Origin: Podarcis gaigeae
Taxonomy: Eukaryota
DNA: 64,000 nucleotides
Reading direction: 5' to 3' (one strand)
Assembly: GCA_964106915.2 (NCBI GenBank)
Contig: OZ066919.1
Notes under the pieces: model-generated
Database searches by the model: none
Seen by the model: only the letters and a program-made list of their open reading frames with translations
Told to the model about the DNA's origin: nothing
Part shown: in pieces, positions 23,323 through 63,930 of the stretch
Numbering within the stretch: the first letter of the stretch is position 1
How the letters are laid out: each line of letters opens with the position of its first letter
Made by a program: the position numbers and the translations under genes

Positions 23323-63930
<40,608 letters not shown>

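Follow-up and report, generated by a model that had tools for sequence, protein, structure and literature searches.

This locus raises the question of whether an 18-nt segment in an intron of a lizard DOCK7 gene is an exon in use and, if so, which vertebrates share it and what switches it on. The window, meaning here the whole stretch of DNA analysed, comprises 64,000 nt from Podarcis gaigeae. A previous, sequence-only reading had proposed a microexon under SRRM3/SRRM4 control that annotation would easily miss.

The microexon and its host gene

The gene and the elements around the segment are all on the minus strand of the window:

23698..63905 (-), 3' part of DOCK7, residues ~866-2119, placed by tblastn of the Podarcis raffonei protein P0210, named homologues and Pfam DOCK domains
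47308..47404 (-), upstream DOCK7 exon, 97 nt
46616..46680 (-), 3' splice site with pyrimidine tract, TGC at -14 and a 62-nt AG-free zone
46598..46615 (-), 18-nt cassette microexon of DOCK7, from the sequence, spliced contigs and the same insert in protein models P0210, P0124 and others
46592..46597 (-), 5' splice site CAG/GTACTG, off consensus at +4/+5, where contigs of runs X1 and X3 join
43256..43352 (-), downstream DOCK7 exon, 97 nt

DOCK7 is an exchange factor for Rac/Cdc42 in neurons. In the PDB, the downstream exon finds its match in DOCK6, and proteins named DOCK7 are recovered with a neighbouring exon. Among six proteins compared, isoform X3 of Podarcis raffonei matches the window best, with many exons at 96-100%. 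Judged by its domain set and best match, which agree, the gene is DOCK7 (DOCK-C); the earlier assignment is thus borne out by homologues, tblastn and the Pfam DOCK domains.

The microexon lies between AG and GT, is in phase 2/2 and, as read from the sequence, inserts the residues SHKPAR. When it is joined between exons 47308-47404 and 43256-43352, LDK-SRAE becomes LDK-SHKPAR-SRAE without a stop, and the insert occupies residues 1452-1457 in the numbering of P0210 (Podarcis raffonei DOCK7 isoform X3). The coordinates, sequence, AG/GT ends, phase and open reading given previously are all exact. The exon falls within the microexon size class of 3-27 nt and its AG and GT are canonical. The pyrimidine tract upstream ends in TAG, and a TGC is found at -14..-12 relative to the exon start, in agreement with the UGC that had been placed about 12 nt before the AG. 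Branch-point-like sites, which are pattern matches only, are present at -64, -47 and -34. The region is single-copy in the genome, and nothing notable was found in the RNA structure around the exon (z = 0.73). Elsewhere in the host intron, 46940-47290 and 43490-44640 are high-copy interspersed repeats with very high summed contig depth.

The motif pattern by itself is within chance expectation. The minus strand of the window contains 42 candidates of the form YAG-(3-30 nt)-GTR with a pyrimidine tract and a TGC. Three pyrimidine-tract candidates are located in the host intron, and 46598-46615 is the only one whose length is a multiple of 3. The exon is raised above chance because it is present in spliced contigs and because the same six-residue insert occurs at the same junction in other species.

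Seven sequence runs were compared, out of 24 listed; all are presumed to be RNA, although none is recorded as such. The informative ones, X1-X4, come from one related species and one study with coded tissues; X5, X9 and X15 barely cover the flanking exon, if at all, and are uninformative either way. The microexon is spliced into contigs of four of the seven runs (X1-X4). An X1 contig of depth 23.6 joins 43354 to 47311, and the 19 letters between comprise the microexon and the end of the upstream exon. In X2, X3 and X4 (depth 24.8, 21.1 and 22.7) a contig passes from the downstream exon into the microexon, and that of X3 goes on into the upstream exon. No clear skip junction is found among the joins listed for the lizard runs, where abundant repeats may mask one. 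A 39-nt X4 record of depth 16.6 may be a skip junction. Skipping is shown outside lizards, because RefSeq isoform pairs of smelt, sturgeon and Xenopus differ by the six residues only. The claim of a real, alternatively used exon is therefore sustained by the junction-spanning contigs of X1-X4 together with the isoform pairs of three other species.

The same runs contain transcripts of another kind. Contigs of X1-X4 extend from the downstream exon into the 3' end of the intron, from 43353 to ~43960 (-), at depths of 15.6, 29.2, 14.8 and 4.1. X1 and X2 have almost no cover near the microexon, unlike this stretch. An internal start or a far-upstream acceptor is possible; the frame is shut by a stop just upstream of exon 43256-43352. 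On the other side of the intron, the Pogona RefSeq model XP_078249063.1 (P0305, 1474 aa) terminates in a run-on from the microexon into intronic sequence, and the read-through of 46480-46615 (-) in the window begins in the same way (RYCS). This likeness points to conservation of the flank and perhaps to a shortened isoform that lacks DHR-2.

The exon is already annotated, and the belief that it had escaped annotation is mistaken. SHKPAR is present in the RefSeq models XP_053248175.1 (Podarcis raffonei X3), XP_054688944.1 (Grus americana X1) and XP_025064461.1 (Alligator sinensis X2). These isoforms are automatic models, and they have the identical peptide at the identical junction, with no difference from the window. 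RefSeq carriers include lizards, birds, alligator, turtles, amphibians, coelacanth, ray-finned fish and sharks. As an exon, it is an ordinary and very old DOCK7 microexon. No paper on the 18-nt exon or its loss was found in the full texts open to search; the one string match listed is an ERBB4 review. No match is present in the supplement rows of PMC13281805 and PMC7821500 that were available. The supplement files of PMC9303857 that were searched list two other dock7 events and not the 18-nt exon. PMC10101408, in the part seen, mentions a DOCK7 microexon and gives no length.

Vertebrate distribution and place in the protein

The protein set consisted of 305 proteins named DOCK7, obtained from three protein searches and two cluster look-ups that gave the cluster representatives and at most 15 listed members per cluster. 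Seventeen proteins without the usual junction span were dropped; two of these, aberrant models from Pogona and Ameiurus, do have the insert. Carriers are over-represented in the set, because one search was ranked on the insert region, and its genera are related. Among the 198 non-mammal proteins of this carrier-enriched set, 102 have the insert (60 of 100 genera). None of the 90 proteins from mammals (35 genera) has it; of these, 89 are eutherian, one is marsupial and none is from a monotreme. Carriers are distributed as follows:

sharks and rays, 13/19
bichir and sturgeon, 10/16
teleosts, 27/46
coelacanth, 3/3
amphibians, 28/38
squamates, 5/29
turtles, 3/8
crocodilian, 1/1
birds, 12/38
eutherians, 0/89
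marsupial, 0/1

The length and phase of the insert are conserved from sharks to birds, and its sequence variants include SQKSVR (sharks), SQKAVR, SHRSVR, SHKTVR and SHKPAR; the mammal models retrieved lack it. The expected conservation in amniotes thus holds for reptiles and birds and fails for the mammal models retrieved. The exon had been described as absent from canonical DOCK7, and this is correct for the mammal type of the protein. Some shark models (P0176, P0286) contain a second 18-nt exon of the IFVCDR type, replacing the first or in tandem with it, the tandem being found in Scyliorhinus. Some teleosts (eel, anchovy; P0319, P0184) have a 54-nt in-frame segment in the same intron. A search of the lizard intron for a remnant of either gave scores within controls.

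In mammals alone, a 9-residue S/T/P-rich insert of the GTYTIASPP type is found one exon upstream, at window donor 48683. It is present in at least 9 mammal proteins of 7 genera (e.g. P0192, P0199, P0051) and absent from the non-mammal models retrieved. It likely arises from an alternative donor, as its first codons fit this. The non-mammal insert and the 9-residue insert both lie within the same predicted flexible linker.

The 18-nt exon adds its residues between DHR-1 (557-735) and DHR-2 (from 1668), in P0210 numbering. The junction corresponds to DOCK6 chain positions 1375/1376, and the armadillo region of the DOCK6 structure corresponds to the site of the insert; DOCK6, a paralogue of DOCK7, is controlled via this region (PMC13503879, in the part seen). 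For a DOCK7 fragment lacking the insert, the AlphaFold model computed from 69 sequences has a mean pLDDT of 83.8, whereas a model from a low-diversity alignment was unusable (43.5). In the former, residues 304-335 have pLDDT < 50, a helix spans 341-373 and the junction is at 339/340. The insertion point is thus predicted to be at the end of a low-confidence linker, directly before a long helix and away from DHR-1 and DHR-2. Occupancy of the family alignment rises from ~0.55 to 0.94 across the insert site.

Within the insert, serine is found at position 1 in 49/60 and K/R at position 3 in 56/60, and positions 4-5 vary freely. The last arginine is invariant because the AG of the splice site fixes it. 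Selection at the protein level therefore appears modest.

Control of splicing and rival explanations

Several other DOCK7 exons in the window are alternative, and they bear on the identity of the 18-nt exon in published catalogues:

36665..36679 (-), published 15-nt DOCK7 microexon, STGWE, found between mapped published human primers
59847-59936 (-), 90-nt cassette exon, skipped in bird and Pogona isoforms
61513-61605 (-), 93-nt cassette exon, skipped in bird and Pogona isoforms, likely HsaEX0020639

In the window, the human primers from the literature fall at 38502-38521 and 28778-28798, and the exon between them is likely the orthologue of human HsaEX0020638 and zebrafish DreEX0028014. The identity of the 18-nt exon with the published DOCK7 microexon is ruled out, the latter mapping to 36665-36679. 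HsaEX0020638 responds to SRRM4 in human cells by +51 PSI (PMC7935315, in part), and the human-chicken conserved DOCK7 microexon used in PMC12871342, as far as that source was available, is probably the 15-nt one. Both exons are in the window, belong to the same gene and preserve the frame. Unlike the 18-nt exon, the 15-nt one is located at the boundary of DHR-2 lobes A and B, is retained in mammals and is SRRM4-responsive in human cells (PMC7935315 and PMC12626424, both in part). Inclusion of STGWE usually goes together with a 9-nt shift in the acceptor that follows (28794-28802 (-), omitting DGK), and STGWE, DGK or STGWEDGK forms occur across species. Two further events are listed in the available files of PMC9303857, a retina-enriched 36-nt chicken exon (GgaEX1020707) and a neural 20-nt zebrafish exon (DreEX0028015).

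A zebrafish VastDB event, DreEX0028013, has the same 18-nt length as the lizard exon. It opens a block, 28013-28017, with lengths of 18, 15, 20, 93 and 90 that includes two named dock7 events (PMC12626424, sheets available), and four DOCK7 cassettes known from isoforms have the lengths 18, 15, 93 and 90. DreEX0028013 is very probably the zebrafish orthologue, on the basis of length and event order, the sheet naming no gene, coordinates or sequence. Identity of the 18-nt exon with DreEX0028015, which is neural and has no human orthologue, was judged unlikely on the same grounds.

Two candidate regulatory elements accompany the exon:

46288..46587 (-), U/G-rich downstream intron, candidate splicing enhancer
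46728..46733 (-), TGCATG, an RBFOX-type hexamer ~113 nt upstream of the exon

Both had been pointed out previously. The G+T content of 46288-46587 is 0.73, the highest in the gene; none of 133 tiles (median 0.51) reaches it, and it is also at the top of 28 exon flanks. It holds 49 TG, 15 TGC, 10 YGCY and one GCATG at 46375-46379, counts that were reached by 600 (YGCY), 177 (TGC) and 258 (GCATG) of 1000 dinucleotide shuffles. TGCATG is present at its place, and with 29 sites in 40 kb of gene it is weak alone. The YGCY, UG and GCAUG motifs are linked to MBNL, CELF and RBFOX factors. Downstream activation of the CELF/MBNL/RBFOX type is slightly favoured by this composition.

It appears unlikely that the exon is a neural microexon of the classical kind, switched on by SRRM3/SRRM4 via the UGC at -14. 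The exon does resemble that programme in size class, frame, surface-loop position, deep conservation and a host gene that is a GTPase regulator, and its inclusion appears high in X1-X4 (tissues coded). The TGC at -14 and the 62-nt AG-free zone are features described for neural microexons (PMC12871342, in part), and loss of srrm3/4 affects 78.6% of the neural microexons in zebrafish (PMC12626424, in part). However, a TGC at -20..-5 is found in 8 of 26 non-alternative DOCK7 acceptors, those of both flanking exons included, while the SRRM4-responsive 15-nt exon has no TGC within 40 nt. A UGC before a short exon is therefore poor evidence of SRRM4 control. Furthermore, DreEX0028013, whose identity is inferred, is outside the neural class; it is listed as 'AS', and the lowest dPSI among its three srrm3/4 comparisons is -4.51, where the cut-off is set at -15 (PMC12626424, in part). 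This value lowers the probability of SRRM control without closing the matter, because the gene name is missing, the neural-enriched 15-nt exon is also 'AS' and low starting inclusion would cap the possible drop; it could also mean low inclusion in larva and retina. Thus, of the SRRM3/4 neural control claimed for the exon, the UGC at -14 stands and the control itself is doubtful. The exon differs from the programme in that its probable orthologue seems barely responsive and in its apparent absence from mammals.

That absence might also have another meaning, namely that mammals keep the exon and rarely include it, or that carriers are hidden among unlisted cluster members. Clusters of 3096 and 580 members were seen through 15 listed members each, and many mammal entries are projected models. 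Against this, the 90 mammal proteins without the insert include RefSeq sets with several isoforms each for pig, vole, dog and marmoset, and no mammal is among the 15 members listed for the carrier cluster. When matches were ranked on the insert, the best 66 of 567 are all non-mammal carriers, with one Xenopus row judged by score. A mammal carrier would have ranked among the top matches, because the mammalian flanks of the junction are identical to those of the lizard. A search unbiased toward carriers gave 0/26 in mammals and 3/42 in non-mammals, which by itself proves nothing; among shorter proteins, 9 matches contained no new carrier by score. Retention in mammals is accordingly improbable, and the exon has likely been lost from the genomes of therian mammals, a loss that is likely and not certain because it is read from protein models rather than mammalian DNA. 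Loss of exons is a well-documented phenomenon, e.g. for TNNI3 exon 3 and CMAH (PMC12992808, in part). The DOCK7 case is similar in that an old exon is absent from one lineage, but here the exon is an alternative microexon and its loss is read from protein models only.

It is quite improbable, finally, that the insert is a nearly neutral addition tolerated in a disordered loop, the splicing event itself being conserved and feeding non-productive or truncated transcripts as well. Drift at positions 4-5 and the fact that mammals appear to manage without the insert would agree with neutrality, as would the different extra segments hosted by the same intron in sharks and teleosts, the Pogona read-through, the entry of X1-X4 contigs into the 3' end of the intron and the mild effects of single-microexon deletions in zebrafish (PMC12626424, in part). 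Yet neutral sequence would not keep the length, the phase and the S/G-H/Q-K/R start from sharks to birds, and this disfavours it.

A possible switch in the DOCK7 linker

On balance, the locus contains an alternatively spliced 18-base DOCK7 exon that is shared from sharks to birds. The probable reading of the whole is that it was lost in mammals and is switched by the U/G-rich downstream intron more than by SRRM3/4. In this mechanism, the downstream intron would turn the exon on, and inclusion would lengthen a linker in the armadillo-repeat region, predicted to be flexible, by six residues, most of them basic. The insert may well tune contacts with partners or membranes, or a phosphorylation site (S-x-K/R), leaving the catalytic domain unchanged. 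Serine followed by a basic residue at S-x-K/R is a kinase-site motif, and clustered basic residues form contact patches; that the insert is either of these is a guess.

A wider proposal, which we advance tentatively and as somewhat less probable than not, is that a microexon as old as the jawed vertebrates and outside SRRM3/4 control disappeared in the ancestor of mammals while the 9-residue insert arose in mammals, amounting to a turnover of switches on one DOCK7 loop. No printed account was found, in the literature searched, of the likely mammalian loss alongside an insert that only mammals have in this linker. Microexon catalogues are mostly based on human and mouse, so that an old exon dropped by mammals is left out of them. 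The 18-nt DOCK7 exon is a clean case for dating and testing such an event. Should the 9-residue insert of mammals prove to be its replacement, the linker would offer a regulatory site on DOCK7 that can be tested.
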